A stretch of DNA of 64,000 nt. Source: an uncultured Desulfobacter sp. GTDB taxonomy: Bacteria; Desulfobacterota; Desulfobacteria; Desulfobacterales; Desulfobacteraceae. The DNA is taken from positions 2,300,544-2,364,543 of the forward strand of contig OY762929.1 in NCBI GenBank assembly GCA_963666675.1, written 5' to 3'. Below the pieces are notes generated by a model. The model saw nothing but the letters and a program-made list of their open reading frames with translations. It made no database searches and was not told the origin of the DNA. Positions 453-32,804 of the stretch are shown in pieces. A program made the position numbers and the translations under genes. The first letter of the stretch is position 1. Each line of letters starts with the position of its first letter.

Positions 453-1088
453 TTACATGGACATCTGAAGATAAATATACAGGGCGCCGCCAGGCAGTCT
501 GTCGTCATTGTTGCCCCGGGGGGGATCCGCATACAGTTTCAGGTTCATCACCGAAACATAGAAGGACAGCTCCTTGAGCCCGTTGAGAAAGTCAATCAGG
601 TCCCAGAATTTTGCCTGGGCAGAGATATCCAGTAAAGGCCTTTTGACCTGGGGATCCAGGTAGACCGATGTGCCTTCATCGGTTAACGACACCCCTTTCT
701 GGACCACCGACACCAGGTTGACCCCTGTCCGGTCGGCCAGGGTGGATATCTCGAGCATGAGCTGGCGTTTCACATCCGCAGAATCCACCGGAGCAAATCC
801 CGTATCCAGTTCATCAAAGTCCTGGCTCAGGGCTTTAAACTTTTTCCTGGCCTCGTCTATCTTTTTTTGAATCACCTTGGGGTTCAGGCCTTTGCTGGAT
901 AAATTGTCTATATTGGCCCGCTTGTCTATGCGGTCCTGGCGCCGGTGAAGCATCTGTTCGGCATGGTCCAGTTTCTTTCTGGAAATGGGATAGAATACAA
1001 GCCCGTAAACCCCCAGCATGAGAAAAGCAAAAACGATCTGTGCCCGCAACCGTTCCCCCGGGGACATTTTTCGCCATCGTTCTATCAT
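453..1088 (-). CDS. GspM/PilO-like pilus/secretion assembly protein (single N-terminal TM, periplasmic domain)
   Basis: 211 aa. N-terminal hydrophobic helix (IVFAFLMLGVYGLVFYPI) is followed by a coiled-coil-rich region. Sits between the GspL-like gene and the ATPase in the same operon. Confidence 0.45.
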   Translation of the reverse strand: MIERWRKMSPGERLRAQIVFAFLMLGVYGLVFYPISRKKLDHAEQMLHRRQDRIDKRANIDNLSSKGLNPKVIQKKIDEARKKFKALSQDFDELDTGFAPVDSADVKRQLMLEISTLADRTGVNLVSVVQKGVSLTDEGTSVYLDPQVKRPLLDISAQAKFWDLIDFLNGLKELSFYVSVMNLKLYADPPRGNNDDRLPGGALYIYLQMSM

Positions 1089-3031
1089 CGTTTCCGGCCT
1101 CTCTTATGGGACTTCTTTGAGGTGGCTTCAGCTTTTTGAACCGGCGGCGTGGTGCTTCGGATTTTAATTTTCAGGTTATAACCATCCAGATCCAGCCCCC
1201 CGCCTTTACCTGCAGTGGACTGGAGATCCGCCACCTTATATTTCAAAGGTACCAGCACTTCATTTAGGTTCTTGCCAAACAACTGGCCATCGGTGTCATT
1301 CAAGGCCCAGGCTTCCATATAGAATCCCTGGCGGTCTGTATCCTCTTCGACCAGGTCAATCATCACCTGGTCGGTGACGGCGCTGCCAATGGCGGTTAAA
1401 AAGTCAGGCACCAGGTGCTGGCGGTAACGGATCACCTGGTCCAGGATCACTTTAAGCCTTTGCTGCTCTTTGATCTGGGCTTCCACACCGTCAAGTTCTC
1501 TCATCAACCGGCTGGCCTCGTTTGAGGTGCTCTGGGCCTCTTTTTTAATCTTGATCCGGCGGTCATACTCGATGTCCAGCAGCTCCAGTTCCCACTGTTT
1601 TTGTTCTGTCTGTTTTTTCATGTAGACGGAATTTGCACCGATGCCGGCGGCGATCAAAAAAATAACGGCCCAGGGCAGCAGAGCCTTGTTTTTCCACACA
1701 GGGGGTTTTGGATCCTGGGCCTCGATTCTGACCTGGCGCTGGGCCGTGCACCGTTTCAGGGCGTGCCGGGCCACGCCTTCCATGGACAATGCGGCGGTCA
1801 TGGGTACCCTGGCCTGGGCCGACGCTGTTTCATGATCGGTCCGGGTGTCAGGTTCCGGCAGCACCGTTTCAGCGTCTTGTGCTTCGGACCAGACCGGTTT
1901 GATCCGGATATCGGACCGGCCAAGGGATTGCTCAATCTCCCGGGCAATCGGATCAAACAGGTCCGGTTCACATAAAATGAAAATATGCGTTGTGCCTGGA
2001 TGGATAAACCGTACAACGGAACCGGCCACCTGGGCAGGATCTGCCAGGCCGGACTGGGTGGGAAACGATGAAAAGGATTCCAGCTGTTCATGTACGCCCT
2101 GGAACAGCCCGGCCTGTTCCTGGCAGATATCCAGAAACAGCCAGCCATGGCCGTCGCCACCGGGCAGGTCCGCCATGGGCAGGGCTGCGCCCAGCCTGGG
2201 GTATATAAAGGTAAGAAACAGATCGTTTTTCTTAAATGCCTCGGTCCATCGCTCCCGGATACCCTGGCCGATACCCGCACCGTACCAGATAAAGGGGGCA
2301 TCGCCTTTGGTCTGGGGTGTCCAGCCGGGAACCAGCTCCTCATCCATGCCCATGAGAATTTCCTGGATTTCCAGGCATTGTCCGATCTGTTCGGCCGAGG
2401 CATATTGATCGTAATTGTTAGCCGTAGATGCCGGGCCGGATTCAAACGCCGTTGCCTGCTCCACCGAGAGGCGCTGGCGCCAGGTAATGATCCCGCAGCC
2501 CTGGAGTACCGCCCCCAAAGACCACATATCCCCAAGCTTTAAAAACAGCTCTTCCAGTTCCCAGCGCACCATCTCGGCCATCTGGGGCCGGGGCCTCGGT
2601 TTTTTGGGGTCCACGGGCAAAGAGAGCAGGTCCCCTGCGGCATTGGGGGTGATCAGCACTGCTTTTTTGGGCAGGATTTTATTCTGGGCTTTAAGCTGGT
2701 CCTTGACTTCCTTGACGGCCTTTGAAAAATCTGCAGCAGTTGAGACCACAGGTTCGCCAATCTTGTATGCCCCCATGATTCCGGCCCTGGCAACCCTGGC
2801 ATACAGTTTAAATCCCGTGGTCTCGAATACGATGACCTTGCCGGGCCGTTTCAGCCTTATACGGTCAACTTGGGAAAGGATGTTCCAGTTTAGTTTCTTT
2901 TTCTTGGGCCGCTCAGTGGCGTTCTTTTTTTTTCTTTTGAATTTCATGGATATCAGCGATTGGCCGGAACCCTTCCAGGAACCAATACCCGCAGCCCACC
3001 GGCGTAAATTAATCAAAGTTCTATTCCACAT
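1085..3031 (-). CDS. GspL-like assembly protein: cytoplasmic PilM-like actin-fold domain fused to TM + PilN-like periplasmic coiled-coil domain (true start probably internal Met, MKFKRKKK...)
   Basis: 648-aa ORF. N-terminal half resembles PilM/GspL cytoplasmic domain. A TM segment (LLPWAVIFLIAAGIGANSVY) is followed by a coiled-coil periplasmic region like PilN. 4-bp overlap with the downstream gene. Confidence 0.5.
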   Translation of the reverse strand: MWNRTLINLRRWAAGIGSWKGSGQSLISMKFKRKKKNATERPKKKKLNWNILSQVDRIRLKRPGKVIVFETTGFKLYARVARAGIMGAYKIGEPVVSTAADFSKAVKEVKDQLKAQNKILPKKAVLITPNAAGDLLSLPVDPKKPRPRPQMAEMVRWELEELFLKLGDMWSLGAVLQGCGIITWRQRLSVEQATAFESGPASTANNYDQYASAEQIGQCLEIQEILMGMDEELVPGWTPQTKGDAPFIWYGAGIGQGIRERWTEAFKKNDLFLTFIYPRLGAALPMADLPGGDGHGWLFLDICQEQAGLFQGVHEQLESFSSFPTQSGLADPAQVAGSVVRFIHPGTTHIFILCEPDLFDPIAREIEQSLGRSDIRIKPVWSEAQDAETVLPEPDTRTDHETASAQARVPMTAALSMEGVARHALKRCTAQRQVRIEAQDPKPPVWKNKALLPWAVIFLIAAGIGANSVYMKKQTEQKQWELELLDIEYDRRIKIKKEAQSTSNEASRLMRELDGVEAQIKEQQRLKVILDQVIRYRQHLVPDFLTAIGSAVTDQVMIDLVEEDTDRQGFYMEAWALNDTDGQLFGKNLNEVLVPLKYKVADLQSTAGKGGGLDLDGYNLKIKIRSTTPPVQKAEATSKKSHKRGRKR

Positions 3032-4424
3032 GCCATTTTAACGTTTGAATCGTTGAGCCGGGGACAAGAGAGAAGGTTTTCCAGTCACGCTCATCATGCC
3101 ATATATAGCCAGCAGTTGTGCAATCACTCTCAGTTGTATAACTAGAATTTGAGCAAAAAGGGGATGGATATGTGTCGGTGCTGCAGGTGCCGCTGGTATC
3201 AACTTCAAAAATCTTGTAGGCTACCTGGCCCATTGGTAAATACTGATCTTCATCGTAGTCTTCAGCTATCGAATCTTCAAAAAGAAATACGGCGGTTTGA
3301 TTTGTTGTTCCGTTCCAACTGCCTGTTTTATCGTAGTATTTTTTATTAGTGCCTGAAGAGTTATAAACTCCAGAGGAAGGCATGACTGTGATAACACCTT
3401 TTGTTTTATACGCGATTTTCATGCAAATGCCCGTGATACTCGTATCCGAATCAGGTGTTCCAAAATCTACGGTAAGCCCTCCGATAGCATCATATCGACT
3501 TGTGCTATTTGAATCAGTTAACAGGATTCTGTATTTTTCTTCGGGTATGGTGCCAGAAGCGGTCTGAGGAGGGTAATCTCCGTCATAGGCATCATATTCA
3601 CTATCAGAATCATCTGCAGTTCCGTCCCTTCCAACTGTTCTTATGACCAGATTCCCGTAATCACCGTAAGCCGTATTGGTGCTGAGAATAAAGCTCCACC
3701 CGAAATTGTTGGGATCGGTTATGTCTATGTCGTCGGAAACCTTAGTGGCTTCATCTCCGTTAACGAGGCCGTTATCTGCATCATAAATATTTCCCCAGCC
3801 ATCCCGGAATTTGGAATACCCGGTTAATTCCGCTGCGTTGAGATATGGACCGTTCCAGCCAGCCCAAAGGTTATGTTCACTGTCATAATACCGGTTCCCG
3901 TCTAACCAGATTTCACCATCACTTTCACATGTCGTTTGGGTCGTATAGACATCGTCTGAACATCTCTCATATCCTTGGTCTGTGTTCCAGCTTCCGCCAA
4001 GATCATCGCACCCCTCCTCAACATGTTCATTGGTTCCGGACTTCGAGCAGGGAGGGCGGCCCTGGATATACCAGGTCTCAGAGGCCGTAGTACAATCATC
4101 TTCATTGGTATATTGGGGATCTGAGCAGTAATCTTTTTTAATTAATGCATTAAGGTCCCTGGGCAAGCTCCCCATATCCGCCACATATCCACGGATTTCG
4201 GGCATGCCGTTCAGGGTTCGGGATGTGTCCCCGATAATGGCTCTGCGGATGGCCGATAACCGGTTCCGGGTATCGTCAAATCGCACCTGGTCCGTTTTGT
4301 TTTCAATGGTACCCACCGCCATCCAGGCCACCGCCGACAGGATGGTGATCACCATCAGCAGTTCCAGAAGGGTGAAGCCTTTGGTGTTAAAAAGGGGGTG
4401 GTATGTTGACTTGGGGCTGTTCAT
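3021..4424 (-). CDS. large minor (pseudo)pilin with class III (prepilin) signal: leader MNSPKSTYHPLFNTKG | FTLLELLMVITIL
   Basis: G|FTLLE prepilin peptidase cleavage/N-methylation motif with Glu+5. 467 aa, Cys-rich, Asp/Gly/Thr-rich periplasmic portion. Confidence 0.6.
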   Translation of the reverse strand: MNSPKSTYHPLFNTKGFTLLELLMVITILSAVAWMAVGTIENKTDQVRFDDTRNRLSAIRRAIIGDTSRTLNGMPEIRGYVADMGSLPRDLNALIKKDYCSDPQYTNEDDCTTASETWYIQGRPPCSKSGTNEHVEEGCDDLGGSWNTDQGYERCSDDVYTTQTTCESDGEIWLDGNRYYDSEHNLWAGWNGPYLNAAELTGYSKFRDGWGNIYDADNGLVNGDEATKVSDDIDITDPNNFGWSFILSTNTAYGDYGNLVIRTVGRDGTADDSDSEYDAYDGDYPPQTASGTIPEEKYRILLTDSNSTSRYDAIGGLTVDFGTPDSDTSITGICMKIAYKTKGVITVMPSSGVYNSSGTNKKYYDKTGSWNGTTNQTAVFLFEDSIAEDYDEDQYLPMGQVAYKIFEVDTSGTCSTDTYPSPFCSNSSYTTESDCTTAGYIWHDERDWKTFSLVPGSTIQTLKWHVE

Positions 4425-4438
4425 GGGCGCTACAGGCG

Positions 4439-4963
4439 TTAAGGTTGTTCCGGGGCGGGCAGGAAGTCCACGACCAGGATGGCCGGGCCTTTGGCATAGG
4501 TGTAGACATGATAGCCTAAGAAACTGGCATCCTGTTCAACCTTCAGGCCTTCTTTGAGTTTGGCAGCCGCTTTGTTTTCCACATATACGGGAATGATCCG
4601 GCCCTCTTTGGACTCCACAAACATGCGGAAATTGACTTCGGGCATGGGATTGACGCCGACCACCTGCATGGCCGTGTAGATGTAGGCCATCTCCTTTTCT
4701 TCGGGGAACCGCTTCATTCTGGCGTCAAATTTCACCGGGACCATTTTGCGGATGATCTTTTTCTTGTAGTCTTGGGCTATGCTTTTTTCCTGGTCAATGA
4801 ACCGGTCCAGTTCCACGATCTTGAACTCCTTGTCCCCTGAATTATCCTGGTCTGCAGCAAATCCGAAGGTTGGGAATATAATGCCCAGGATCAAAAACAG
4901 AGTAACAGCTAAGTTTATTAATGATTTTATTTTCTTATTTTGTGTGCTCAATGTTATGCTCAC
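4439..4963 (-). CDS. hypothetical secreted protein (signal peptide), embedded in pilus operon
   Basis: 174 aa, N-terminal signal-like segment (LINLAVTLFLILGIIFPTFGFAADQ). No recognisable motif. Confidence 0.4.
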   Translation of the reverse strand: MSITLSTQNKKIKSLINLAVTLFLILGIIFPTFGFAADQDNSGDKEFKIVELDRFIDQEKSIAQDYKKKIIRKMVPVKFDARMKRFPEEKEMAYIYTAMQVVGVNPMPEVNFRMFVESKEGRIIPVYVENKAAAKLKEGLKVEQDASFLGYHVYTYAKGPAILVVDFLPAPEQP

Positions 4964-4973
4964 CTACGCTTGT

Positions 4974-5939
4974 CTATTTGACGTATAGCAAAATGTCATC
5001 TGTGTTATTGTCAGGATCATATTCCCCGTGGTCGAATTCACCGTTGGGCCCCATGCTGATGATGACAGGCCCCGGATTCTTAGCCCCGCCGATATCCATG
5101 TCGGTCTGGTCCAGGCCGAACACCAGGTAGGGACGGCCCCATCTGGATCTGGTGCCGTTTTCCCGGCCTTCATAATAGTCGTCGTCATCAGGGTCGTCGG
5201 ATTCATCCGACAGGCGCCTGCGGTACAGACTCCAGTCCAGCAGGGTGTCGTCCACACCACTGCCCCCCGCCTCCTTTTCCCCGAACTCAAAGGGGTCTGC
5301 CACGCCGATGACATCGGGAATGTCATAGTCCTCGCTTGAATCGTCCAGGGGAGTGCCCTCAATATCGCCCTGGGCCAGCTCGTCATCATCAGTGCCGTTA
5401 ATGCTGTCTGAGATATCCACATACCCATCCTTAAATCCTTTCAGATACGGTCCTCGCCAGCCCCGGCCGGTTTCCGGGTCCCACGTTTTCAAGGGACTTC
5501 CCGAGCCGGTCAGCGGACTTGTGACGGCGGTGAGCTGATAAAGATTGGCAGGGGAGTAGAACCAGCGGCATTTCTGGTCAACAATGCTGTCGCTGCCTGT
5601 TGCTTCTATTGCCTGGATATACTCCGGCAGCCCATCGTCCACGACCTGTCCTGAATCCACACAGTCAGCCAGGCCAAAGGGACCGGTTTTGGGGTAATAC
5701 CCGGTGTCGGCCTTGAACTGGGCCAGGGCCTTGGCGATCTGCTGCATCTCGGTGCGGGCCAACCGGTCGTTGGAATCGTCAAGCACCTTTGCATATCCCC
5801 CCAGGGAGATAAATGAAATGGAGGCCAGTATGCCGACCACCACCAGCAGCTCCAGCAGGCTGAACCCCCGGCAGTCGGAGAGTATAAAAAAGTTGCGGTA
5901 TCTGAAGTTGTGTCGGGACATATCGGGATAACGATGCAA
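4974..5939 (-). CDS. acidic minor (pseudo)pilin with prepilin signal (RG|FSLLELLVVVGILA)
   Basis: Class III signal peptide motif G|FSLLE. 321 aa with a very acidic C-terminal half (DDSSEDYDIPD...). Confidence 0.6.
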   Translation of the reverse strand: MHRYPDMSRHNFRYRNFFILSDCRGFSLLELLVVVGILASISFISLGGYAKVLDDSNDRLARTEMQQIAKALAQFKADTGYYPKTGPFGLADCVDSGQVVDDGLPEYIQAIEATGSDSIVDQKCRWFYSPANLYQLTAVTSPLTGSGSPLKTWDPETGRGWRGPYLKGFKDGYVDISDSINGTDDDELAQGDIEGTPLDDSSEDYDIPDVIGVADPFEFGEKEAGGSGVDDTLLDWSLYRRRLSDESDDPDDDDYYEGRENGTRSRWGRPYLVFGLDQTDMDIGGAKNPGPVIISMGPNGEFDHGEYDPDNNTDDILLYVK

Positions 5940-5942
5940 GGC

Positions 5943-6254
5943 TTATTGTACGCAGGCTTTTCTGGCTTCTTTGAGCGGCTTCTGGAACTCCGGGCCGTAT
6001 TTTCTTCGGGTCCTGCTTTTGGCCTGGCTTTCCTTTACGCCTTCATTCATAAGCTTAGCCATGTAGTTGTAGGCGTCGCCGTCCACGGTATCCGCCGCTT
6101 TCTGGGCAAAACATTCGGCCTGGGCTGCGGGCATCCCGGAGCGGATCAAGCCGGCTTTCATCTGGTCGGTGTCAGGTGATCCGCAACCGGCCAGAAAAGG
6201 CAGGGCAAAAGCAGTGATGGTAATCAGTTTAAGATTTTTTTTCAGATAGGACAC
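5943..6254 (-). CDS. small lipoprotein (lipobox LAGC)
   Basis: 103 aa. Signal + lipobox FLAGCGSPD. Confidence 0.4.
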   Translation of the reverse strand: MSYLKKNLKLITITAFALPFLAGCGSPDTDQMKAGLIRSGMPAAQAECFAQKAADTVDGDAYNYMAKLMNEGVKESQAKSRTRRKYGPEFQKPLKEARKACVQ

Positions 6255-6444: not shown

Positions 6445-7473
6445 TTAGATGGTGTTACGGGTTCCGTCCCATTCACCAAGTTCTTCCTCTTTGGTGTCGC
6501 CAGCGCCGTCAACAACGGCGATGAAGGCAACCTGATCAGTGGCTTCAACAGTACCCCATGCTGTGCCGGTGGCGTCATAGGTAGATTCGGCAACCTTGAA
6601 CAGGCCGATGAAACGGTTGTACTGGTCTGGATTCACATGGCGGTATACAGGCACGGAAGTCATGCCGCCAAGCTGTTCGGTGTTGAACAGGTTGGAGGAG
6701 GGGCCAAAACCAACGGCTAGAAATACGGGGGCTACTGCGCCGTCTTCGGGAGTAACAGTTGAGGAAACCGTTCCGGCAGTGGCATCAAAGGCTGCATCTT
6801 CATATTCGCCCGGGCCGAGGATACGCTCAATGGCGCCGGTCCAGTATGCAACAGTATCACCATCAGCCAATGTAATGCTCTGGCCGCAGCCATTGCCTTC
6901 TTCACCATTAAAGATATTGCCGGCAACCATGTTATTGGAACGGCTGGCTACAGTTTCCTGCAGAACGCCGCCAACGGGGGTGCAGTCAGCAGCTGTATAA
7001 CCCAAATCAGTAGCGGTAATTACACTGCCTGTGGCATCAATATAGCGAAGATCGGTCATTCCGATATCGGACATGATACCCGCAACATCGGCAATAATAG
7101 TGCCTGCTTCAACGCTGTCTTCAATACCCAGGATATCGCCGTCGGTACCGCTGCCATTGGGCAGCAATACAGCGGTGGTTGCATCATCAGCTGCTGTTAC
7201 ATAGCAAAGAGAATCAAGGTTATTGGGCAGAACGTTACGATTCAGCACACGAAAGGTTCTAACCCCTTTGTTCAACTCATCCATCATGGCAACGTGGGCT
7301 GCAGCGGAAGCACGCATATCCGTATCCTGCAGGGCGATGGTGGCGGTACCGGCAATGGCGGCCATGATGGCGACAACCACCAGGAGCTCAAGAAGGGTGA
7401 AACCTTTTTCGTTGTTGAATTTTTTGCGTTGGGCGATCAATTTTTTAAAAAATTTTTTAAATTTCATTTTCAT
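6445..7473 (-). CDS. large major pilin/pseudopilin, type IVb-like long leader (MKMKFKKFFKKLIAQRKKFNNEKG | FTLLELLVVVAIMAAIA)
   Basis: Prepilin motif G|FTLLE with a 24-aa basic leader. 342 aa. First gene of the minus-strand operon. Confidence 0.6.
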   Translation of the reverse strand: MKMKFKKFFKKLIAQRKKFNNEKGFTLLELLVVVAIMAAIAGTATIALQDTDMRASAAAHVAMMDELNKGVRTFRVLNRNVLPNNLDSLCYVTAADDATTAVLLPNGSGTDGDILGIEDSVEAGTIIADVAGIMSDIGMTDLRYIDATGSVITATDLGYTAADCTPVGGVLQETVASRSNNMVAGNIFNGEEGNGCGQSITLADGDTVAYWTGAIERILGPGEYEDAAFDATAGTVSSTVTPEDGAVAPVFLAVGFGPSSNLFNTEQLGGMTSVPVYRHVNPDQYNRFIGLFKVAESTYDATGTAWGTVEATDQVAFIAVVDGAGDTKEEELGEWDGTRNTI

Positions 7474-7699
7474 AAGATCCTTTATTTTTCATTTAAAAGT
7501 TAAGTAGCTGTTTGATCCCTTGCTGACTTTGGAAACCTCTGTTTCCCCCTTGCAGCGGATCGGACATATGGATTTAACTTTGGAACCTGTGTTGCGCCCC
7601 TCGCGCGAAGGTTCCTGGTGCGTGCAGTTCGGATCGGCCCCACGCCGTCTTCCGGCAGAAAAAAAATCCTCCTTTGGTTTTGATATGGACGGTTTATAC

Positions 7700-8014
7700 T
7701 TACGCATCGAACCCACTTTCGCATGCTTGTTTTATGTCGGTCGGCCCGGACGCCCGCCGGACAGTCTGGGCCGTATTGGCGAAATCAACCACGAAGCGGT
7801 ATTGTTTGCCGCAATAGATAATCACCTCTTTTTGCCCCCGGCGCAGGATTTTCATCTCCACACGGATATTGCCGTGGCCGTCATGGGTAAAAACTTCCTG
7901 GTAAAGTTCGGTCAGCTTTTTAATTACATCCTGATTGGTTGCTGTGCTCAATTCATTGCTCCAGATGGTGTCTATGGTTGTGTTAAGCTCGACAAAACTT
8001 ATACAGCACTTCAA
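7700..8014 (-). CDS. small protein of unknown function, paralog of 18076..18495 (shared LYQEvfTHDG...EV...CG.xYRF core). Annotated ATG start may be too far upstream.
   Basis: 104-aa ORF. Alignment to the paralog: ELYQEVFTHDGHGNIRVEMKILRRGQKEVIIYCGKQYRF vs NLYQEMITHDGYADITVNICLMKRNIKEVRLQCGREYRF. Confidence 0.4.
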   Translation of the reverse strand: MKCCISFVELNTTIDTIWSNELSTATNQDVIKKLTELYQEVFTHDGHGNIRVEMKILRRGQKEVIIYCGKQYRFVVDFANTAQTVRRASGPTDIKQACESGFDA

Positions 8015-8025
8015 AACTTATCTTC

Positions 8026-8041
8026 TGTGACTTTGATCACA
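8026..8041. promoter_or_regulatory. perfect CRP-type palindrome TGTGActttgaTCACA in divergent intergenic region (small ORF/pilin operon vs crp-family gene)
   Basis: Sequence tgtgactttgatcaca read directly. Matches the TGTGA-N6-TCACA consensus in all 10 defined positions. Confidence 0.5.
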
Positions 8042-8227
8042 TTTCTAAAAATAATTTTGGATTATATAATTTTTCACAATTTTTATCATAATGTTAGAAA
8101 TAGCTTATTTTTTTAGATGGTATTGACAAACCCATTTTCATTACTTTACTATCCGCGCTTGTTGTTACGCACAGGGCAACACCCGGGTTGTAAGATATCT
8201 CTAAATGCTTAAGGAAAGATAAATTTT

Positions 8228-9004
8228 ATGGCACAGACTGCGTTAAGAAACAGACTTATCAGTACGGCAGGCAAAAAAATCGATCTTGAACTGACCCCAC
8301 TCCTTGACGGACTGCCCCCTGATCTGCAGCAGGCCCTAATCCGCCAGGGCCGGATAAGGTCTATGAAAAAGGGGCAGCTGCTGTTTATGGCCGGAGATCC
8401 GGTGGATTCTATTTTCTTTGTCGTGTCCGGTAAGCTTAAGGAATACTTTTCTACGAAATCCGGAGATGTGTGTTTGAGAAGTATTTATTTCTCGGGCAGT
8501 TATATATCCTTACATGCTGTTTTCCTGGGCTGGAAAACCTACGCCTATACCTGCGAAGCGATTCGCCCCACCACCTGCGTGGTGTGGCCGGCCAATGCGT
8601 TTATGCAGCTTCTGCAACGGGAACCGGTTCTTGGACTCCGTGTGGCGGCCATACTGGCGGAAAAAATTGAGAATACGTGCAGGCTTCAGTGCCTGTGCCG
8701 TAAAACCCAGGCCCTGTCCCGGGTGGCGGGATTTCTTCTGCGCCACTCAGCCGCTTCTGAAAATCATCCCCGATCCTGGGATACAGGGCTGGGTTGCACC
8801 AAACGCGTCGGCAAAGCGGAATTTACCCTCTTGACCAATATCCGGCCCCTGGAATTGACTGCCAGCAACATCTGCCTGGCCCGGGAGACCTTTTCCAGGG
8901 CCTTATCCATGCTCCAGGAGCAAGGCTATATCCGCACCCGGGGCGGGATGGTTGAGATTCTTGATACTGAAGGGCTGAAACAGATTTGCGGTGCCAGTGA
9001 TTAG
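8228..9004 (+). CDS. Crp/Fnr-family transcriptional regulator (cNMP-binding domain + C-terminal HTH; no Fnr-type Cys cluster)
   Basis: 258 aa. Effector-domain motifs (GQLLFMAGDPVDSIFFVVSGKLKEY). HTH recognition helix ARETFSRAL carries the R-E-x-x-x-R pattern CRP uses to read TGTGA. Confidence 0.75.
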   Translation: MAQTALRNRLISTAGKKIDLELTPLLDGLPPDLQQALIRQGRIRSMKKGQLLFMAGDPVDSIFFVVSGKLKEYFSTKSGDVCLRSIYFSGSYISLHAVFLGWKTYAYTCEAIRPTTCVVWPANAFMQLLQREPVLGLRVAAILAEKIENTCRLQCLCRKTQALSRVAGFLLRHSAASENHPRSWDTGLGCTKRVGKAEFTLLTNIRPLELTASNICLARETFSRALSMLQEQGYIRTRGGMVEILDTEGLKQICGASD

Positions 9005-9140: not shown

Positions 9141-10169
9141 TCAGGCCGGGACAGCGGCTGCCGCTTGCCGGCGCGCGATATTCAGCTTATCGAGCAGGCG
9201 GCCTAGGGCTTTGGGGGTGATGGACTGATGTCCGTCCACCCAGGCATTATCCGGATCATTGTGGACCTCAATTTCAAGGCCGTCGGCCCCGCATGCCATG
9301 GCGGCCAGGGACATGGGTTCAATCAGGCTGCGGCGGCCCGTGGCGTGGGACGGATCCACAACCACCGGCAAGAGGCTGCGCTGCTTAACCAGGGAAACCA
9401 CGCCCAGATCTAAAGTGTTCCGGGTGGCGGTCTCAAAGGTTTTAATTCCCCGTTCACACAGGATCACCCGGCGGTTGCCCCGGCTTAAAATATATTCGGC
9501 CCCCAGAAGCCACTCTTTCATGGCTGCGGCCATGCCGCGCTTGAGCAGCACCGGCGTGTTGCTTTTTCCCAATTCTTCGAGAAAGGCGTAATGAAACATG
9601 TTTCGGGTTCCCACCTGGAGGATGTCGGCCACTTCCGACACCTCGTCAATTTTCCCGGTACTCATCACCTCGGTGACAATTTTAAGGCCGAATTCACGTT
9701 TGATCCGGTTCAAAATTTCCAGTCCGTCCTTTTTAAGCCCCTGGAATCCGTAGGGGCTGGTCCGGGGTTTATAGGCCCCGCCCCGCATATATTTTATGCC
9801 TAATTCGCTCAGATCCTGGGCGATGGCGGCTGTCCGGTCCCAGGTCTCCACGGCACACGGGCCGGCGATGATCAGGGGGGCGCACCCGTCTCCGATGCGT
9901 TCCCCCGCCGGATCATCATCCCGGCCAAGGGCCACCCAGGGGGGGATGGCCATCAATTTTCTGCAACTTAAGGGGTAGGGCGGGACATCATCGACCACTT
10001 CCCGGACAAAATCAAGGGCCAGAAAATCCTGGCCGTGAATGCAATCATTGACCCTGACAAAGCATGTATCCGAGATTCTTTCGGCTTCCGGGCAGATTTT
10101 TTTTAAAATAGTTATTTCATGCTGCTGTTGACTAAGGTCCGGGGTAGCGGAAAGTCTTAGGATATTCAT
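9141..10169 (-). CDS. 3-deoxy-7-phosphoheptulonate (DAHP) synthase, type I-beta (KDO8PS-like) with N-terminal ferredoxin-like regulatory domain
   Basis: 342 aa. Catalytic region AGPCAVE...KPRTSPY.FQG...VDPSH..G is characteristic of Thermotoga/Bacillus-type DAHPS. About 90-aa N-terminal extension. Confidence 0.8.
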   Translation of the reverse strand: MNILRLSATPDLSQQQHEITILKKICPEAERISDTCFVRVNDCIHGQDFLALDFVREVVDDVPPYPLSCRKLMAIPPWVALGRDDDPAGERIGDGCAPLIIAGPCAVETWDRTAAIAQDLSELGIKYMRGGAYKPRTSPYGFQGLKKDGLEILNRIKREFGLKIVTEVMSTGKIDEVSEVADILQVGTRNMFHYAFLEELGKSNTPVLLKRGMAAAMKEWLLGAEYILSRGNRRVILCERGIKTFETATRNTLDLGVVSLVKQRSLLPVVVDPSHATGRRSLIEPMSLAAMACGADGLEIEVHNDPDNAWVDGHQSITPKALGRLLDKLNIARRQAAAAVPA

Positions 10170-10204
10170 TGTGCCTCCATTTCCTTTAAAAATCCGTTTT
10201 TTTG

Positions 10205-11371
10205 TTAAAAATCATTAAACTGGGGATTAGACACCGGCATTACAGCCATGCACTCCATTTCGATCAGCCATTCCGGACGGCATACCGGGGCCAGAACGAT
10301 GATCCGGGGAATATCGGGATAGTGTTCCCGGAAAAATGTATCCACCACCGTACGATCGGACACGTCCCTGAGATACACGATCAGATGACGGACATGCGCC
10401 ATGTCTGCGCCGGCTTCGGCAAGCAGGGCCTGGATATTGTCCAGGGTGCGCCGGGTCTGTTTTGCGACATTGCCCTTGTGAACCACCTGGCCGTAACGGT
10501 CGATGCTGGCGGTGCCGGAAATAAAAATATGGCGGCGGTCCCCGTAATCCACGCTGGTTCCCCGTTCAAACGTGACCCCGTATTCGTGGGTGGGATTGAG
10601 CATGTCAGGGGCCTTCAGGTGCCTGATCTGGCCAGGGTGAAGGCCTGAAATACTGTATGCATCCATTAGAACACTGGTGCCCGGGTCTGCATACCGCCCC
10701 TCAATGCCGGTGCTGGCAATGTAATGGGTCTCGGGCGTCATGCCCAGTGTTTCAAAATATTTTCGCCGGGCATCCACCACCCCCTGGTAATTGAAATCCA
10801 CATCCTTGACAAACAGCCAGGTGCGGATACAGTTCGATTGAAGGCTCATGCCGTCTTTTTCCAGAAGGGTCTGGTAGGATTTGAACACGGTATCGGTTTG
10901 TTCATAGCTGCCATGGGCCCCGTTGGTGTTCATCAATCCGGCAGTCCAGCAGTGCGCGTACCCGTTGCGGGATAACACTGTTGCATCGACGCCGTTGAAC
11001 TGTTTTTTCCCGATACCGGCATCAGAGCATTTGACCAGATAGACCCAGGCCGCAACCTTTTGTCCGGTCAGGGGCGGCTGCTGCACCACAGACAGGGCGC
11101 ATTCGGCCAGACGACCGTTAAATGTCTCCCGCACCGATGGGACCAGGTCTGTCTGGTTGGCGTAGTCACTGACAAAAAAACGTATGAATACGGGCACTGG
11201 CGCAATGCCCCAGGAAGGGGTTATAAAATCATCAAGACCATTGAGCAGTTCAGACAATTGCTGTTTGTATGGCTGCAGGGCCTGGGGGGTAATTAAAAGA
11301 TGAATTTCATCAACACCGTTGTTTGAAAATACGGAATATTCAAGTTGGGTGCTGCCATGGTGGTATTTCAT
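10205..11371 (-). CDS. two-domain protein with C-terminal (and probably internal) RidA/YjgF/chorismate-mutase-like domains
   Basis: 388 aa. C-terminal HIFISGTASIDRYGQVVHKGNVAKQTRRTLDNIQALLAEAGADMAHVRHLIVYLRD is a canonical RidA/YjgF signature. The middle segment (NCIRTWLFVKDVDFNYQGVVDARRKYF) resembles a second YjgF-like domain. Confidence 0.55.
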   Translation of the reverse strand: MKYHHGSTQLEYSVFSNNGVDEIHLLITPQALQPYKQQLSELLNGLDDFITPSWGIAPVPVFIRFFVSDYANQTDLVPSVRETFNGRLAECALSVVQQPPLTGQKVAAWVYLVKCSDAGIGKKQFNGVDATVLSRNGYAHCWTAGLMNTNGAHGSYEQTDTVFKSYQTLLEKDGMSLQSNCIRTWLFVKDVDFNYQGVVDARRKYFETLGMTPETHYIASTGIEGRYADPGTSVLMDAYSISGLHPGQIRHLKAPDMLNPTHEYGVTFERGTSVDYGDRRHIFISGTASIDRYGQVVHKGNVAKQTRRTLDNIQALLAEAGADMAHVRHLIVYLRDVSDRTVVDTFFREHYPDIPRIIVLAPVCRPEWLIEMECMAVMPVSNPQFNDF

Positions 11372-11723: not shown

Positions 11724-11739
11724 CGTGACGAGCATCACA
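11724..11739. promoter_or_regulatory. near-perfect CRP-type site cGTGAcgagcaTCACA upstream of VKOR-DsbA gene
   Basis: 9/10 consensus positions. About 95 bp upstream of the ATG at 11828. Confidence 0.35.
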
Positions 11740-14013: not shown

Positions 14014-15525
14014 TCAAATGGCCCTCAGGAATTTGATCACAGCCTCACGGTCCTTTTTAGACAGCTTGCGGAACGCTTCGCGGGACTCTTCACCTTCCCC
14101 GAAGTGCCAGAGAATGGCACCCTCGAAGTCACGTGCCCGCTGGTCATGCCACATGTCGGTATGGTCGGCCACGGTGTGGATCATCTGGCGGGCCCACAGG
14201 GGCATGGTCCTGAATGTTTTGCGAAATCCATGGTTCATCTCACCCATATCGTGCATCAGCAGATCGGTATAGGGCCATATTTTCTGGTTGGCATAGGCCG
14301 GGATATACGGGGATTTTGTGCCGGTGGTCCAGCTGGGCTTATGGCATTCGTTGCAGCCGATTTCATAAAATTTTTGTTTGCCGCGCTGTACCATGGGGTC
14401 ATTGAGATTTCTGGCTGCGGGGACGCCTAACCCACGCATCCATATCATGAGACTGTCCCGGTCCTCGTCAGACACCTCCACGGGCTGGTGGGCGGAGAGC
14501 AGTGCGGTATCAAAGCCGAGTTCCCCTTGTTTATCGATCCACTCCTGGGTGGCGAACAGGGCGGGTTTATCCGTACGGGTCAGGTTGGCCACACTCCAGG
14601 CCCCATTGAATCCGGGTCCGTTCTGCAGGGTAGCGCGGGTGCAGTGTGTGGTGAATTTACCCAGATGTTTTTCCCCGTCATGGGGTTCGACAATCCAGCG
14701 GCCGTGCTGGCCTTTAATGGGGCCCGGCAGTGCCTGCTGGCGGTTATATTCTTCAATGATATCCTCATCCGGAATCACATCAAGCAGCCCTGCGCCGAAA
14801 ATACCGATGGTGCCCTCAAGATCGGCCCTTGTTCCTTCGGGCAGGGGGAAAAGCGACCCCACCACCTCGGTGACCGGATAGATCAGTGTGCCCTCGTAAG
14901 GCTTGCCTTCATTATACGGGGTGCCATCGGGGTATTTATTGCCGTATTGGTCCGTGTAATTTTTCCAGCTGATTTTTATATCCTGGGCCGGGGGCTGGTA
15001 CGGCGGGGTGGCCATGGTCTGGGCCATGAATTTGAACCCATTGATCAGTTTGCCGTCCTTGTGGATCAGCACCAGGTAACCGTTGCCCCACTGCTCGGTC
15101 TTGAACTTGCTGACCCGGCGGGCCCGTGCATAATTGGGATGGCAGTTCTGGCAGGAGGAGTTATTGTACACCGGTCCAAGGCCGCCGAAGGGCGCGTCCG
15201 GATCAGTGACAAAATCGGCTTCAAAGATCGACTCGCCGGCACCAAACTTTTCAGACAGTTCCGGATCTGCGTTAATGGCCGGAGACGGCATTTCAAGACA
15301 TCGGGTGGTGGTGACAAATACCGTCCCCATCCTGCCGCCGGTATAATATTCTTCGGAAACATCGGGGGGATCTCCGCCCACAGCAATATGGGCCCACGCC
15401 CCGGAGGTCAATACGCATATAAAAATACCCGCCGAGCCGAGAAGGCCAAGCCCCCAAAGCATAGTTTTAATCTTTTTTTTATGCACTTTTTTAGAAAAAC
15501 CCTCGTTGTTTATATTCATTTTCAT
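14014..15525 (-). CDS. di-haem cytochrome c, DUF1111/thiol-oxidoreductase-like (start placed at MKMNINNEG...; the longer ORF overlaps the upstream gene)
   Basis: Two CxxCH haem-binding motifs (CQNCH, CNECH) and a signal peptide. Conserved partner of imelysin genes. Confidence 0.6.
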   Translation of the reverse strand: MKMNINNEGFSKKVHKKKIKTMLWGLGLLGSAGIFICVLTSGAWAHIAVGGDPPDVSEEYYTGGRMGTVFVTTTRCLEMPSPAINADPELSEKFGAGESIFEADFVTDPDAPFGGLGPVYNNSSCQNCHPNYARARRVSKFKTEQWGNGYLVLIHKDGKLINGFKFMAQTMATPPYQPPAQDIKISWKNYTDQYGNKYPDGTPYNEGKPYEGTLIYPVTEVVGSLFPLPEGTRADLEGTIGIFGAGLLDVIPDEDIIEEYNRQQALPGPIKGQHGRWIVEPHDGEKHLGKFTTHCTRATLQNGPGFNGAWSVANLTRTDKPALFATQEWIDKQGELGFDTALLSAHQPVEVSDEDRDSLMIWMRGLGVPAARNLNDPMVQRGKQKFYEIGCNECHKPSWTTGTKSPYIPAYANQKIWPYTDLLMHDMGEMNHGFRKTFRTMPLWARQMIHTVADHTDMWHDQRARDFEGAILWHFGEGEESREAFRKLSKKDREAVIKFLRAI

Positions 15526-15571
15526 ATTGTCTTTCCCTGTTATCTGTGAGGAAGTTGGCTGCGGCACAGGT

Positions 15572-16759
15572 TTATTTGTCCACGTATTTAAGATCACTGC
15601 CGTAACATGCAAAGGGCTCAAGGGCCGGATCGATGGCAACCAGTGCCGTAGCAGCAGTCAGTGTTGTTGCAAGCCTGTCTAACTGTTTTATAGCAAGTTT
15701 TATGGTTTGTTTTCTATTTTTCGGTGCTGCCTTTTTTATGGCATCTATGCGCTGGGAAAGGTAAATGATGTTGGTGCGGATATGGTCGGCCAGCACCTTG
15801 TCCTTTCCCGCCACAAGATCATAAAAGCAAGGCTTGGCAGATTCACCGGTGATGCTGCAAGCATAGGCATTGTCAATGCCTTTGAGCATGCCTTGAAGAT
15901 CCTGGCAGGGATCAATGCTTTCCCAATAATTTAAATCCCCTTGTTTTCGATCAATCAGATCTTCTTCAAAAATGGCCAGCATATCCTCAATAACGCTGGA
16001 GTCTTCCTGAAACTGCTCCTGAATGGGAATGGAGATGCTAAAGTAACGGCTCTTTTCAAGGCCCGGGTGGTTGACCTCCCAGGCAAAGGAGCTGCGAAAG
16101 GGTCTCTGGGCGTCGGAGAGCATTTTGCGCTGGTCGGCGGGCATATTATCCGTGCCCACCCAGCTGGCCAGAAAATCCAGTCCGCTTAATTTCATCTCTG
16201 CGGCGATGGCTGATAAATAGGCCAGTTGGGTATCGCTTAAATCATCAGGGCTGCGCGGGATTCCCCGGTTAAAGAGCAGGTACTGGGCCGCATAAAGCCC
16301 CCGGGTTGAGGCCGGCTGATCGCGCAGCGCCTGGGCTGTTGCCTGTTTTTTGCCCTGGTTTATCTCTTCTATGGCATGTTCTAACAAAATTTTATCCACA
16401 GGCCATATGGCCAGTTGTTTGTGAAAGGCAAACAACGCCGCAGGGCCATACATAAATATCTGGGACTGCATATAATCGTCCCGGATGGCTTTCCAGTCCG
16501 CCACGACGTTATCGAACGCCGCCTGGCTCCTGCTTTTATCAAGTTCTCTGGCGGATGTTTCAAAATTATATATATGGCCGCACATCTTTTGAATCGTTTC
16601 GATAACCACCTGGTCTACATAACTTGCCAATGCGTCTTGTGCCTTTTTTTTGAATAGATAGTTATCCAGTTGTGTCTTGTAATTGCCCTTGAAAAATGCA
16701 AGGCCTGAAACGGTCAGCAACACTAGACACATGCCGCCTGCAATAATGATTTTCTTCAT
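15572..16759 (-). CDS. imelysin (peptidase M75)-like lipoprotein/iron-regulated protein
   Basis: 395 aa, signal peptide. Sequence type and the imelysin-DUF1111-imelysin gene order are characteristic. Confidence 0.5.
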   Translation of the reverse strand: MKKIIIAGGMCLVLLTVSGLAFFKGNYKTQLDNYLFKKKAQDALASYVDQVVIETIQKMCGHIYNFETSARELDKSRSQAAFDNVVADWKAIRDDYMQSQIFMYGPAALFAFHKQLAIWPVDKILLEHAIEEINQGKKQATAQALRDQPASTRGLYAAQYLLFNRGIPRSPDDLSDTQLAYLSAIAAEMKLSGLDFLASWVGTDNMPADQRKMLSDAQRPFRSSFAWEVNHPGLEKSRYFSISIPIQEQFQEDSSVIEDMLAIFEEDLIDRKQGDLNYWESIDPCQDLQGMLKGIDNAYACSITGESAKPCFYDLVAGKDKVLADHIRTNIIYLSQRIDAIKKAAPKNRKQTIKLAIKQLDRLATTLTAATALVAIDPALEPFACYGSDLKYVDK

Positions 16760-16840
16760 AGTTTCTCCTGATTGTCTCTACTGTTCTCCGGGGGCATCCT
16801 TAAAAACGGCCGGGTAGGGGGTATTATGAATTCTTAATCC

Positions 16841-17923
16841 CTATTGCCTGAGCATTTGGGCCTCAAGGCCTTTTTTCACATCAAGCTCAAGTGTCATGGC
16901 CGCTTCGGCAATCATATCTTCCAGCTTGGACATATCCTTATAAACTCCCTTCAGGGCAGATGGCTTTTTCTTAATAACGGTATAAAGGGGCTCTTTTTTG
17001 TTTTTGAGCTTTTCAAGGTTTTTATCCAGCCGCTGGATCTGTTTTCGGATATCCTTGGCAAGGCCCGGATCTTTTTCATGGGCAATGCCGTCCCGGGTGG
17101 CCAGAAGGTTTAAAAGGCCATGGGTGCCATCGCCAATCATCACCGAAGCGACGCCTTGGGCTATGGCCTGTAACCCTTCAAGTGAGGTTTTGCTGTATGG
17201 GGCGTCAAGCAGGTCGGGCCGGGCCGGGCCATTGTTGAAATTGGTTGGGAAACCAATGCGCTCTCGAACGGTATCCTCTATGATGTTCATTGTCTGGGCC
17301 ACAACCTGGCTTAATGCCTCGTTGGGATTCAGGTAGGGTTGGCCATTGCCTGCATTGAGAAATGCCTCCCGATAATCCTGGTCCCATTGGGTTTTGGCCC
17401 GGGTCAGGCGGGCTGTGATTTCAGCCGTGATATCGGTCAGATGCAGGCAGCGCTCATTGGCGACCGCTTCCTGGCTGTCCTGGCTGGCAAAAAGAAGATA
17501 CTCCACAGCCGTGTATCCACGGACATCGTTGCCTTGGCGCATTCCGGCAAATTCGTTAGAAGCCACCACGGCCTCAAGTACGGTGGCATTGCATGGTTTA
17601 CCGATACGATCAGCCATATGGCCGGCTGGTCCGATCAGGTATGGCAGCGTTTTATTCCATGCCACCCAGGCATTTTTCCATGACGCTCTGGCCGCAGTCA
17701 GGCTTTGATCTGAGTGCTCACTGCACAAGTGTTTTACAGCCGCTTCAAGGGCCTGGGCTGTTGTAATTGCATCATTCCAGTGACTGTCAATGCCCTGGAT
17801 GGTCATGTTTTCAAGAACCTGGCTGTCACTGGTTTCGGCCAATGCCGCCGGTGCAATGGTGAGAAAGGTGCTAAATGCCATCAGACCGACAGCGGCCATG
17901 GCAATACGAAGTTTAGGTTTCAT
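16841..17923 (-). CDS. imelysin-like (IrpA-like) periplasmic protein
   Basis: 360 aa, signal peptide (AALAETSD). Paralogous organisation with the 15572..16759 gene. Confidence 0.5.
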   Translation of the reverse strand: MKPKLRIAMAAVGLMAFSTFLTIAPAALAETSDSQVLENMTIQGIDSHWNDAITTAQALEAAVKHLCSEHSDQSLTAARASWKNAWVAWNKTLPYLIGPAGHMADRIGKPCNATVLEAVVASNEFAGMRQGNDVRGYTAVEYLLFASQDSQEAVANERCLHLTDITAEITARLTRAKTQWDQDYREAFLNAGNGQPYLNPNEALSQVVAQTMNIIEDTVRERIGFPTNFNNGPARPDLLDAPYSKTSLEGLQAIAQGVASVMIGDGTHGLLNLLATRDGIAHEKDPGLAKDIRKQIQRLDKNLEKLKNKKEPLYTVIKKKPSALKGVYKDMSKLEDMIAEAAMTLELDVKKGLEAQMLRQ

Positions 17924-18023: not shown

Positions 18024-18039
18024 TGTGATCAGCGTCACA
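18024..18039. promoter_or_regulatory. perfect CRP-type palindrome TGTGAtcagcgTCACA about 100 bp upstream of imelysin operon start
   Basis: Sequence tgtgatcagcgtcaca read directly. Confidence 0.5.
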
Positions 18040-18075: not shown

Positions 18076-18495
18076 TTAACCGGTTCCTTTATCATCCCGG
18101 CGGCGGCCTTTGCCGGTTCTCCTGTCCACAAGGGTCCTGCGTTCCAGTTTAAAGTTCCTGGGAACATACCCTTTGCGCCTTGGGTTGGTATAGTCTCTTC
18201 GGTCTTTACCGCCGCGACGCTCGGGTTGGCCGCTGATCTCTTCCCAGGCGCTGCCTGTGGCCGTATCAATGATTCGGTAGCGATCCTGCGCCCACGCCTT
18301 TTCAGGGCATGGAATATAAAACCGGTATTCCCTGCCACATTGCAGGCGAACCTCCTTGATATTTCTTTTCATCAGACAGATATTCACAGTTATATCTGCA
18401 TATCCGTCATGGGTTATCATTTCCTGGTACAGGTTGATAAATTTGTTTAAAAAAGCCAGATTGGGGTCTGTTCTGTTTTCGGTGTGCTCAGTCAT
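18076..18495 (-). CDS. small protein of unknown function with Arg-rich C-terminal tail; paralog of 7700..8014
   Basis: 139 aa. Conserved LYQEMITHDGY...EVRLQCGREYRF core. C-terminal RRGGKDRRDYTNPRRKGYVPRNFKLERRTLVDRRTGKGRRRDDKG is highly basic. Confidence 0.4.
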   Translation of the reverse strand: MTEHTENRTDPNLAFLNKFINLYQEMITHDGYADITVNICLMKRNIKEVRLQCGREYRFYIPCPEKAWAQDRYRIIDTATGSAWEEISGQPERRGGKDRRDYTNPRRKGYVPRNFKLERRTLVDRRTGKGRRRDDKGTG

Positions 18496-18602: not shown

Positions 18603-18618
18603 TGTGATTCAAATCACA
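18603..18618. promoter_or_regulatory. perfect CRP-type palindrome TGTGAttcaaaTCACA upstream of small paralog gene
   Basis: Sequence tgtgattcaaatcaca read directly. Centre about 115 bp upstream of the ATG at 18495 (minus). Confidence 0.5.
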
Positions 18619-32731: not shown

Positions 32732-32804
32732 TTACCGGAGCAGGAATCGAACCTGCAACTCTCGTGTCCTTTGCACGATGCTCTACCCATTGAGCTATCC
32801 ATTA
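32732..32804 (-). pseudogene. tRNA-like element, apparently degenerate (class I cloverleaf, A at position 33, acceptor-stem mismatch, no encoded CCA)
   Basis: Minus-strand TAATGGA-TA-GCTC-AATGGGTA-GAGC-A-TCGTG-CAAAGGA-CACGA-GAGTT-GCAGG-TTCGATT-CCTGC-TCCGGTA-A. Good D-arm (GG18-19) and T-arm (TTCGATT). The anticodon loop lacks U33, and the 5' acceptor strand has 2 changes that break pairing. Confidence 0.4.

Follow-up and report, generated by a model that had tools for sequence, protein, structure and literature searches.

Two genes for small proteins, A and B, lie on the minus strand of a 64,000-nucleotide (nt) stretch of DNA from an uncultured Desulfobacter sp. (contig OY762929.1, positions 2,300,544 to 2,364,543; assembly GCA_963666675.1), which was analysed as a whole and is called the window here. 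The gene for A stands ahead of a type IV filament cluster, that for B stands ahead of an imelysin cluster, and both are flanked by CRP-type palindromes (Table 1). A and B were taken from an open reading frame (ORF) listing of the window, where they appear as 7700-8014 (104 amino acids, aa) and 18076-18495. A first-pass annotation had described the two products as paralogs sharing a conserved core of roughly 45 aa with no assignable motif. The paralogy was confirmed by BLASTP, in which 23 of 56 residues are identical (41%, E 3e-14) over a match running through LYQE-THDG...KEV..CG..YRF; a common core exists, and its length is about 56 aa. Pfam and NCBIfam scans of A and B returned nothing meaningful, with no Pfam family at E values up to 10. 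The extremely Arg-rich C-terminal tail that had been noted on one product is real, and in B it follows a motif conserved within its subfamily, ERRsGxDRRdy..RR..PR[ND]FKLERR..[DE]RR.G.GRR.DD. A and B are the only members in the window of what is an uncharacterised, real and widespread family of small cytoplasmic proteins.

The listed start of A at 8014 is a TTG, not the ATG given in the first-pass annotation, and lies 12 nt from the upstream palindrome. The same annotation had suspected that the true start might be a TTG near 7951, giving A a paralog-like N-terminus, and this part of it is borne out. Homologues both close and distant begin with MSTATNQDVL or METATNQDVL, which corresponds to the in-frame TTG at 7951-7949 of A; a GGAG (7962-7959) is located 7 nt 5' of this codon; and the -10-like TATAAG (8003-7998), 22 nt past the palindrome in a class-II-type geometry, would have the transcript begin 3' of 8014. 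The additional segment 7952-8014 overlaps this hexamer and is present in no homologue except an identical nr entry, and an exact look-up of the 104-aa annotated form returned no record. We conclude from these sequence features that A begins at the internal TTG and is 83 aa long, which corrects its gene start in public annotation.

Table 1. Positions of the genes, sites and hairpins in the window (strand as given; a dot marks palindromic sites).
Feature	Position	Strand	Remarks
Small protein A	7700..7951	-	83 aa; start TTG 7951-7949, stop 7702-7700; short A-type member
Spurious N-terminal extension of the listed 104-aa ORF	7952..8014	-	Probably 5' untranslated region and promoter
Small protein B	18076..18495	-	139 aa, ATG start; long B-type member with Arg-rich tail
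Hairpin cggc-GTGGG-gccg, spacer between A and pilin gene	7635..7647	-	Strict definition
Hairpin gcgc-GAGGG-gcgc (7606-7594) inside an outer stem	7582..7615	-	Outer stem GGAACC 7615-7610 with GGTTCC 7587-7582
CRP-type palindrome TGTGATCAAAGTCACA upstream of A	8026..8041	.	TATAAG 22 nt downstream; centre near -43, class II-like
CRP-type palindrome upstream of B	18603..18618	.	Perfect match
CRP-type palindrome between B and imelysin gene	18024..18039	.	TATATT about 23 nt downstream
Crp/Fnr-family regulator, divergent from A	8228..9004	+	Pfam cNMP_binding and HTH_Crp_2
Major type IV pilin	6445..7473	-	342 aa; long basic leader, then GFTLLELLVVVAIMAAIAG; Pfam N_methyl
Remainder of type IV filament cluster	453..6254	-	Synteny with T2SSE/MshEN ATPase loci elsewhere
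Cluster member, 103-aa ORF		-	
Cluster member, second pilin	4974..5939	-	
Cluster member, 174-aa protein		-	
Cluster member, third pilin	3021..4424	-	
Cluster member, PilM/PilN-like	1085..3031	-	648 aa
Cluster member, PilO/T2SSM-like	453..1088	-	211 aa
Imelysin, imelysin, di-haem oxidoreductase cluster 3' of B	14014..17923	-	Pfam Peptidase_M75 (twice), DHOR

A small-protein family in at least seven phyla

A profile search matched 132 proteins, all unnamed and lacking Pfam domains, from Desulfobacterota, Beta-, Gamma- and Alphaproteobacteria, Acidobacteriota, Bacillota, Omnitrophota and other groups. An exhaustive profile search yielded 397 clusters at 50% identity, all of them stand-alone proteins of 60-150 aa, and a scan of one genome per species located 377 loci in Desulfobulbus, Geobacteraceae, Geopsychrobacteraceae, Chromatiales, Methylococcaceae, Rhodocyclaceae including Accumulibacter, Alphaproteobacteria, Acidobacteriota, Bacillota (Ammonifex and Desulfothermobacter), Omnitrophota, Auribacterota and Planctomycetales. 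The family occurs in at least seven phyla, across which identity to A is 60-80%, and is annotated everywhere as 'hypothetical', with no domain model. Residues His23, Lys41, Glu42, Cys47, Gly48, and Arg52 are invariant in 120 sequences. Among 83 distinct core DNA sequences, the entropies at codon positions 1, 2, and 3 were 0.58, 0.34, and 1.45, respectively, which indicates strong purifying selection on the sense frame and answers a reservation, made in the first-pass annotation, that the ORFs might show no conservation in related genomes.

An antisense ORF of 198 aa (7520-8116, plus strand) overlies A, its promoter and the hairpin-bearing spacer that follows it. Similar antisense ORFs are open in 64 of the 83 family cores and could be picked up by gene callers. 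The ORF was rejected as a true gene: codon-position variation favours the sense frame, of which the antisense frame is a stop-poor shadow.

Family members come in two forms, a short A-type of 60-90 aa and a B-type of about 125 aa with a somewhat diverged core and the Arg tail, which is present on a few A-type cores as well. The expression PR[ND]FKLERR, run over all fetched proteins and ORFs, retrieved family proteins and otherwise only a few unrelated off-frame ORF segments, and a database search for the Arg-rich tail in other proteins gave zero candidates. Paralog pairs recur, with two family members located within about 20 kb, as in the window, in each of loci L007/L008, L030, and L073. The two metagenome loci most similar to the window, L091 and L092, each have a B-type member with the Arg tail inside the fetched pilin locus, on the opposite strand (5768-6214 and 2534-2980, respectively), so that linkage to the pilus cluster also occurs among B-type copies.

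AlphaFold2 modelling of A with the family alignment predicted a helix (residues 6-22) and three strands (30-36, 40-46, and 50-56) with predicted local distance difference test (pLDDT) values above 90, followed by a weaker helix (58-67). In this model, the core of about 57 residues is a single helix packed on a three-stranded antiparallel sheet; the conserved sheet surface is basic. The model of B has the same core (residues 11-62, pLDDT above 90) and a tail that is predicted to be disordered. Structural comparison ranked alpha-beta-beta-beta-alpha domains that bind RNA (SRP14/SRP9, DGCR8 and other double-stranded RNA-binding domains, and HPF) closest, all below significance. When the family profile was searched against PDB sequences, the only match was a zinc finger at chance level (E 0.53).

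Operons headed by the small gene and the hairpins that follow it

Neighbourhoods of the gene for the family protein, called here the small gene, were compared in 80 genome loci plus the window (81 in all) and in an independent set of pilin-seeded metagenome loci. The pilins directly downstream of the small gene are 300-370 aa long, and a pilin cleavage motif follows on the same strand in 65 of the 81 loci (55 of 69 under strict scoring), at a median distance of 295 nt from the stop codon. When the test was reversed and started from the pilin in metagenomes, the small gene was found upstream on the same strand in 44 of the 48 loci with enough upstream sequence. The same gene order (small gene, N_methyl protein of 310-366 aa, several unannotated genes, PilT-like T2SSE ATPase, MshEN/T2SSE ATPase) is shared by Thiobacillaceae, Desulfobulbus elongatus, Colwellia, and one Acidobacteriota metagenome-assembled genome (MAG); at the Desulfobacter locus the filament ATPase genes fall beyond the window edge. 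Neighbour clustering recovered pilins at 57 loci, PilM/PilN-like proteins of about 620 aa at 36, PilO/T2SSM-like proteins of about 215 aa at 32, and ATPases at 34; a variant system also includes a secretin. The proposal that both genes lie immediately upstream of secreted or periplasmic systems was correct in that the small gene heads operons for exported proteins, and too loose in speaking of secretion generally, the association being a near-obligate pairing with one conserved type IV pilin.

This first pilin is 44-63% identical to same-position pilins in other phyla, among them counterparts from Acidobacteriota, Desulfobulbus, Geobacter, Chromatiales, Rhodocyclaceae, and Alphaproteobacteria. 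Its N-terminus and C-terminus are invariant, and the invariant blocks include AAAHVAMMDE, NGCG, PVYRH, and the C-terminal DGAGDTKEEELGEWDGTRNTI. Such conservation is unusual for a major pilin, since these exposed proteins tend to vary much more, and it points to a ligand or function that has been conserved. Nothing specific on an iron-regulated pilin of this kind emerged from literature searches.

The small gene also heads operons that contain no pilin. These encode a PEP-CTERM protein together with a TonB-dependent receptor (in Methylovorus and at other loci), a HemS/ChuX haem-degrading protein, or the imelysin cluster of the window, whose imelysin-imelysin-di-haem oxidoreductase (DHOR) trio is found near the small gene in D. 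elongatus as well. Recurrent neighbours are flavodoxin (9 loci), FeoB (5), imelysin (10), DHOR (6), and hemP (8), along with Zip and TonB receptors. The hemP genes are true members of PF10636 and, on the same strand as the small gene, precede it by a few hundred bases (L003/L004 7213-7452; L034, L041, L045, L080, L089, and L018); the two families therefore co-occur and do not replace each other.

The spacer between A and the pilin gene contains two of only three hairpins in the window that satisfy a strict definition, a GNGGG pentaloop on at least four Watson-Crick pairs. A further spacer hairpin, GGAAAC-AGAG-GTTTCC (7546-7531, minus strand), about 60 nt 5' of the pilin start codon, has no GGG loop. 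On the coding strand, strict hairpins occur in 33 of 65 spacers as compared with 0.75 in shuffled sequences (maximum 4), whereas the complementary CCCNC loop occurs in just one of the 65, which shows that the loop orientation is fixed relative to transcription. Their density is 2.19 per kb in the spacers versus 0.04 per kb elsewhere in the same loci. Under a broad definition (GGG placed in the 3' part of a 4-7-nt loop), which takes in marine gammaproteobacterial variants, GGG-loop hairpins were found in 53 of 65 and 36 of 44 loci of the two independent sets (82%), against 9.2 and 5.3 in shuffles. GGG loops stand about 6-7-fold above shuffle level; of the control loops, AAA and GAG reach about 1.5-2-fold and CCC falls below it. 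The loop persists on stems that change with the lineage (cgga, aacgt, atgac, acggc, ccgat, gcgac, ccggg, actta, and others); among pentaloop hairpins with stems of at least 5 bp, the dominant loops are GTGGG, GCGGG, GCGGC, and GAGGG. Many spacers carry two or three copies, and a Rhodocyclaceae alignment revealed a multi-hairpin leader with some compensatory changes. The hairpin is also located 3' of the small gene at two loci where no pilin follows, one of them in Methylovorus. Enrichment of k-mers in the spacers was dominated by related taxa and by leader-peptide coding sequence and added only CGTGGGG, which is the hairpin loop.

No intrinsic terminator was found in the spacer from A to the pilin gene or in that from B to the imelysin gene, and the coding strand of the former spacer showed no sigma-70-like promoter, as would be expected if A and the pilin gene were co-transcribed; a sigma-54 promoter ahead of the pilin gene was rejected, with 0 of 65 loci carrying one. 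Searches with 4227 Rfam covariance models gave nothing above chance level in the region 7400-8250 (matches at E up to 10) and no match in seven related loci. The sole match in the window at gathering score is a tRNA (32732-32804, minus strand, 50.9 bits).

CRP-type sites and Fur-like boxes upstream

Perfect TGTGA-N6-TCACA palindromes occur three times in the window, each time flanking A or B, whereas shuffled sequences lead one to expect 0.07 and none of 100 shuffles reached three. TATAAG, TATATT, and TATAGT hexamers lie 20-23 nt past CRP-type sites, a spacing that fits class II activation. The Crp/Fnr-family regulator encoded divergently from A has the recognition helix ARETFSR, and R-E-x-x-x-R is the recognition-helix pattern of E. 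coli CRP; the regulator is a candidate binder of these palindromes. Crp-family homologues adjoin the small gene in 7 loci. Perfect CRP-type sites are found 5' of the small gene in 7-8 of the 80 loci, which, besides this Desulfobacter, belong only to Desulfobulbus/Desulfobulbaceae and one Acidobacteriota MAG, and there the sites also precede imelysin, DAHP synthase, and pilus genes. The first-pass statement that each gene is preceded by a perfect CRP palindrome thus holds for this genome, and the pairing is lineage-specific: in most other lineages, outside the Desulfobacterota and the one Acidobacteriota genome, a Fur-like box occupies the position of the CRP-type site.

Fur-like boxes, scored as at least 14 of 19 matches to GATAATGATAATCATTATC, were present in 23 of the 80 genome loci, where AT-matched windows predict 2.4, and in 24 of 45 loci from the independent set seeded with the pilin (0.44 expected). 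Together with the iron-related neighbours, these boxes point to a regulon for metal limitation, most likely of iron, as the common theme, and not to a cyclic AMP (cAMP)-CRP regulon. The CRP-type site is most likely a local wiring of this regulon. Because the same gene set (small gene, pilus, imelysin/DHOR) lies behind Fur-like boxes in most Proteobacteria, the dedicated Crp-family regulator may be metal-responsive.

Genes for a DAHP synthase and for a 388-aa protein with a C-terminal RidA/L-PSP domain adjoin the Crp-family gene (9141-11371, minus strand), and a one-mismatch CRP-type site is located at 11724-11739. The RidA/L-PSP family of 388-394 aa recurs in 7 loci, and in the Acidobacteriota MAG a DAHP synthase gene with its own CRP-type site (L010 6538) precedes the small gene. 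These genes may constitute an aromatic-compound branch of the same regulon. In D. elongatus, the promoter region between the Crp-family gene and the small gene is duplicated (L005 7460-7560 and 7786-7886), and each copy contains a CRP-type site, TATAGT, and a leader of about 50 nt (GGCTCC...GGCTAATACTAATCGG); a small transcript of its own could arise from the upstream copy.

Proposed function and comparison with known systems

We tentatively favour, with somewhat less than even confidence, a reading in which the family protein is a small regulator encoded beside its targets, probably binding RNA and acting on the GGG-loop hairpins. A small regulator had been one of two suggestions in the first-pass annotation and is still the best reading, given that the gene also heads non-pilin operons and that a conserved RNA-type hairpin follows it. 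In this reading, a signal of metal limitation would induce operons that begin with the small gene and encode exported or surface proteins; it would act through Fur in most Proteobacteria and, in this Desulfobacter, through the divergently encoded Crp/Fnr-family regulator bound at the perfect palindromes. In the commonest of these operons, that of the distinctive type IV filament with its major pilin gene within about 200-300 nt, the protein would bind the transcript at the hairpins between the small gene and the pilin gene, and in doing so would increase or gate pilin-operon expression after firing of the promoter, following the logic proposed for HemP/HmuP/ChuP and haem receptors. B-type proteins would keep the core, with the disordered Arg-rich tail probably adding non-specific nucleic-acid affinity. 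We favour a regulator over a pilus-specific structural role because the downstream genes vary (PEP-CTERM protein and TonB receptor, HemS/ChuX, imelysin), and RNA as the ligand because the phyla share no conserved operator of the duplex type, the closest fold matches, all below significance, are RNA-binding domains, and HemP/HmuP/ChuP provide a precedent.

Several observations weigh against this proposal. About 18% of loci have no hairpin even under the broad definition, and no such hairpin was found 3' of B. Hairpin and protein are linked by co-location only, pilin loci that lack the small gene number just four, too few to test dependence, and the hairpins could be RNA-processing or stabilising structures or sites on which another factor acts. 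The invariance of one His and one Cys would be in keeping with a metal or haem site, instead of or besides RNA binding. A stronger consensus promoter at 8089..8061 would put the CRP-type site of A 3' of the transcription start and would turn it into a repressor site.

The position of the small gene ahead of the major pilin gene and the basic, highly conserved beta-sheet surface would also suit a DNA-binding transcription factor acting near the downstream promoter, by itself or in co-activation with Fur or the Crp-family regulator, in the manner of PapB or of HmuP/HemP in Bradyrhizobium and Burkholderia; direct transcriptional activation by HemP/HmuP has been reported for two species (PMC9131926). 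However, no helix-turn-helix, ribbon-helix-helix, or other DNA-binding signature or Pfam match was found in the family, the coding strand between A and the pilin gene is without a promoter-like site, and the sole downstream element common across phyla is a 5-nt loop with variable stems on a fixed strand, less than a duplex operator would need and more in keeping with RNA. We consider a DNA-binding factor unlikely. A filament accessory that binds protein, whether a cytoplasmic adaptor or chaperone for the long-leader prepilin or a factor tuning the assembly or retraction ATPases as PilZ-type adaptors do for PilB, would account for the near-obligate pairing with one pilin type in both directions, and both the long basic leader and the conservation of that pilin are unusual. 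A chaperone-like factor was the other suggestion of the first-pass annotation. It has lost ground, since the gene heads pilin-free PEP-CTERM/TonB-receptor, HemS/ChuX, and imelysin operons and is followed by a conserved RNA-type hairpin; moreover, no PilZ or other Pfam match was found, type IV pilins are normally inserted co-translationally, and they are not known to require cytoplasmic chaperones. A filament accessory is in our judgement quite unlikely.

A small sensor or carrier that binds iron, haem or another metal through His23 and Cys47, possibly across a dimer, and so reports or buffers metal status, whether or not it has a regulatory output, would be compatible with the RNA-binding regulator. 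The His and Cys, as well as Glu42, are invariant in the 120 sequences, the predicted topology places His23 and Cys47 at the same end of the sheet, Fur-like boxes lie upstream with iron-uptake genes around, and ChuP and HemP bind haem (PMC9131926). Such a role nevertheless appears improbable: each chain offers only two candidate ligands, no similarity to known metal-site families was found, and the conserved hairpins and fixed gene order would be left unexplained. The overlap of A with the antisense ORF at 7520-8116 could be taken to mean that the ORFs are not genes, or that similarity and palindromes arose by chance. This reading is refuted, with a vanishingly small probability remaining, by the similarity of A to B (E 3e-14), by hundreds of homologues with strong third-position variation in a sense frame whose antisense is merely stop-poor, and by the palindrome count of three versus 0.07 expected.

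Taken further, the RNA-binding regulator that we favour would represent a new class of small RNA-binding proteins that recognise GGG-loop hairpins and gate an iron-starvation-induced, previously undescribed type IV filament conserved in several phyla, which itself takes part in iron acquisition; as a whole, this extended reading is on the unlikely side. A part for the filament itself in iron acquisition is suggested by the Fur or Crp-type control and the iron-uptake neighbours. The His/Cys pair could make RNA binding sensitive to metal or haem, and the arrangement could then be a bacterial counterpart, in its logic, to iron-responsive element/iron regulatory protein (IRE/IRP) control. That the family constitutes a new type of RNA-binding protein is a realistic possibility. 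The linked features, namely the distinctive filament with its conserved pilin, the Fur-like or Crp-family control, and the strand-specific G-loop leader hairpin, are absent from the libraries searched. If true, the proposal suggests that some bacteria deploy a dedicated pilus under scarcity of metal, probably iron, which would be relevant to iron biogeochemistry in sulfate reducers, Accumulibacter-type wastewater organisms, and methanotrophs, and the family would gain a name and a testable role.

The arrangement of CRP-type sites resembles class II promoters of E. coli CRP in the perfect sites, in the -10-like hexamer 20-23 nt downstream, and in the adjacent Crp-family gene with its R-E-x-x-x-R helix; unlike the E. 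coli promoters, it may respond to a metal-related signal rather than to cAMP, given that the same genes are behind Fur-like boxes elsewhere. With sites above chance here as well as in Desulfobulbus and the Acidobacteriota MAG, and with a putative cognate regulator gene adjacent, a CRP/FNR regulon is predicted. Like CsrA/RsmA, the family proteins have about 60 residues, are very conserved across phyla, and are proposed to recognise a short G-rich motif in hairpin loops, often several per leader. Unlike CsrA, to which no sequence or Pfam similarity was found, they are predicted to fold as a helix followed by three strands, whereas CsrA has five strands and then a helix; their presumed loop is GNGGG or GGG (predominantly GTGGG, GCGGG, and GAGGG) rather than GGA; and they are encoded beside the presumed target and are not global regulators as far as the data show. 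PilZ proteins, the c-di-GMP receptors whose beta-barrel carries RxxxR and D/NxSxxG, differ too, in that the family has no PilZ match in Pfam and its predicted fold is not a beta-barrel. The position of a small regulator gene immediately upstream of the major subunit gene recalls the PapB-type regulators of chaperone-usher fimbriae. In the PapB system, the two cistrons are differentially expressed, and PapB is a DNA-binding protein; it shares no homology with the family as judged by Pfam, and the filament type is unrelated. FbpA, FbpB, and FbpC of Bacillus subtilis, whose sequences are unrelated to the family as far as can be judged, act with the small RNA FsrA and have no pilus link. They are small basic proteins of the Fur regulon, with a proposed role as RNA chaperones during iron sparing (reviewed in PMC7430163 and PMC8464778).

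The closest parallel is with HemP/HmuP/ChuP (PF10636), small Fur-regulated first-gene proteins proposed to act post-transcriptionally via 5' untranslated elements upstream of receptor genes (PMC9131926). Members of both families are stand-alone cytoplasmic proteins of 60-90 aa encoded by the first gene before an iron-acquisition surface component, and Fur control, as indicated by the boxes described above (23/80 and 24/45 loci versus 2.4 and 0.44 expected), is a further functional resemblance and not evidence of homology. Some family members head TonB-receptor and HemS operons, and true hemP genes are adjacent in 8 loci. A short motif resemblance is also present, VIIHCGKQYRF in the family as compared with LVIxHxGxxYxLR in HemP. 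When the HemP signature IxHxGxxYxLRxTxxGKLILTK was sought in the family, only an I.H.G..Y look-alike (IIHCGKQY) was found and GKLILTK was absent; the His of IIHCGKQY is not conserved, being Tyr in A and Asp in Methylovorus. Homology was not supported by hhalign, in which the 120-sequence family alignment and a nine-sequence HemP alignment (a database search for further HemP sequences returned three) matched over the same hairpin region with a probability of 1.1% and E 0.049, and a single HemP with 0.4%. Unlike HemP, whose conserved region lacks it, the family has an N-terminal helix; its usual downstream gene encodes a type IV pilin and not a haem receptor; and its candidate RNA element is a G-rich hairpin loop, where that of HemP is the C-rich HPRE. 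By analogy, then, the relation of the family to HemP/HmuP would be one of working like these proteins, not of membership among them.

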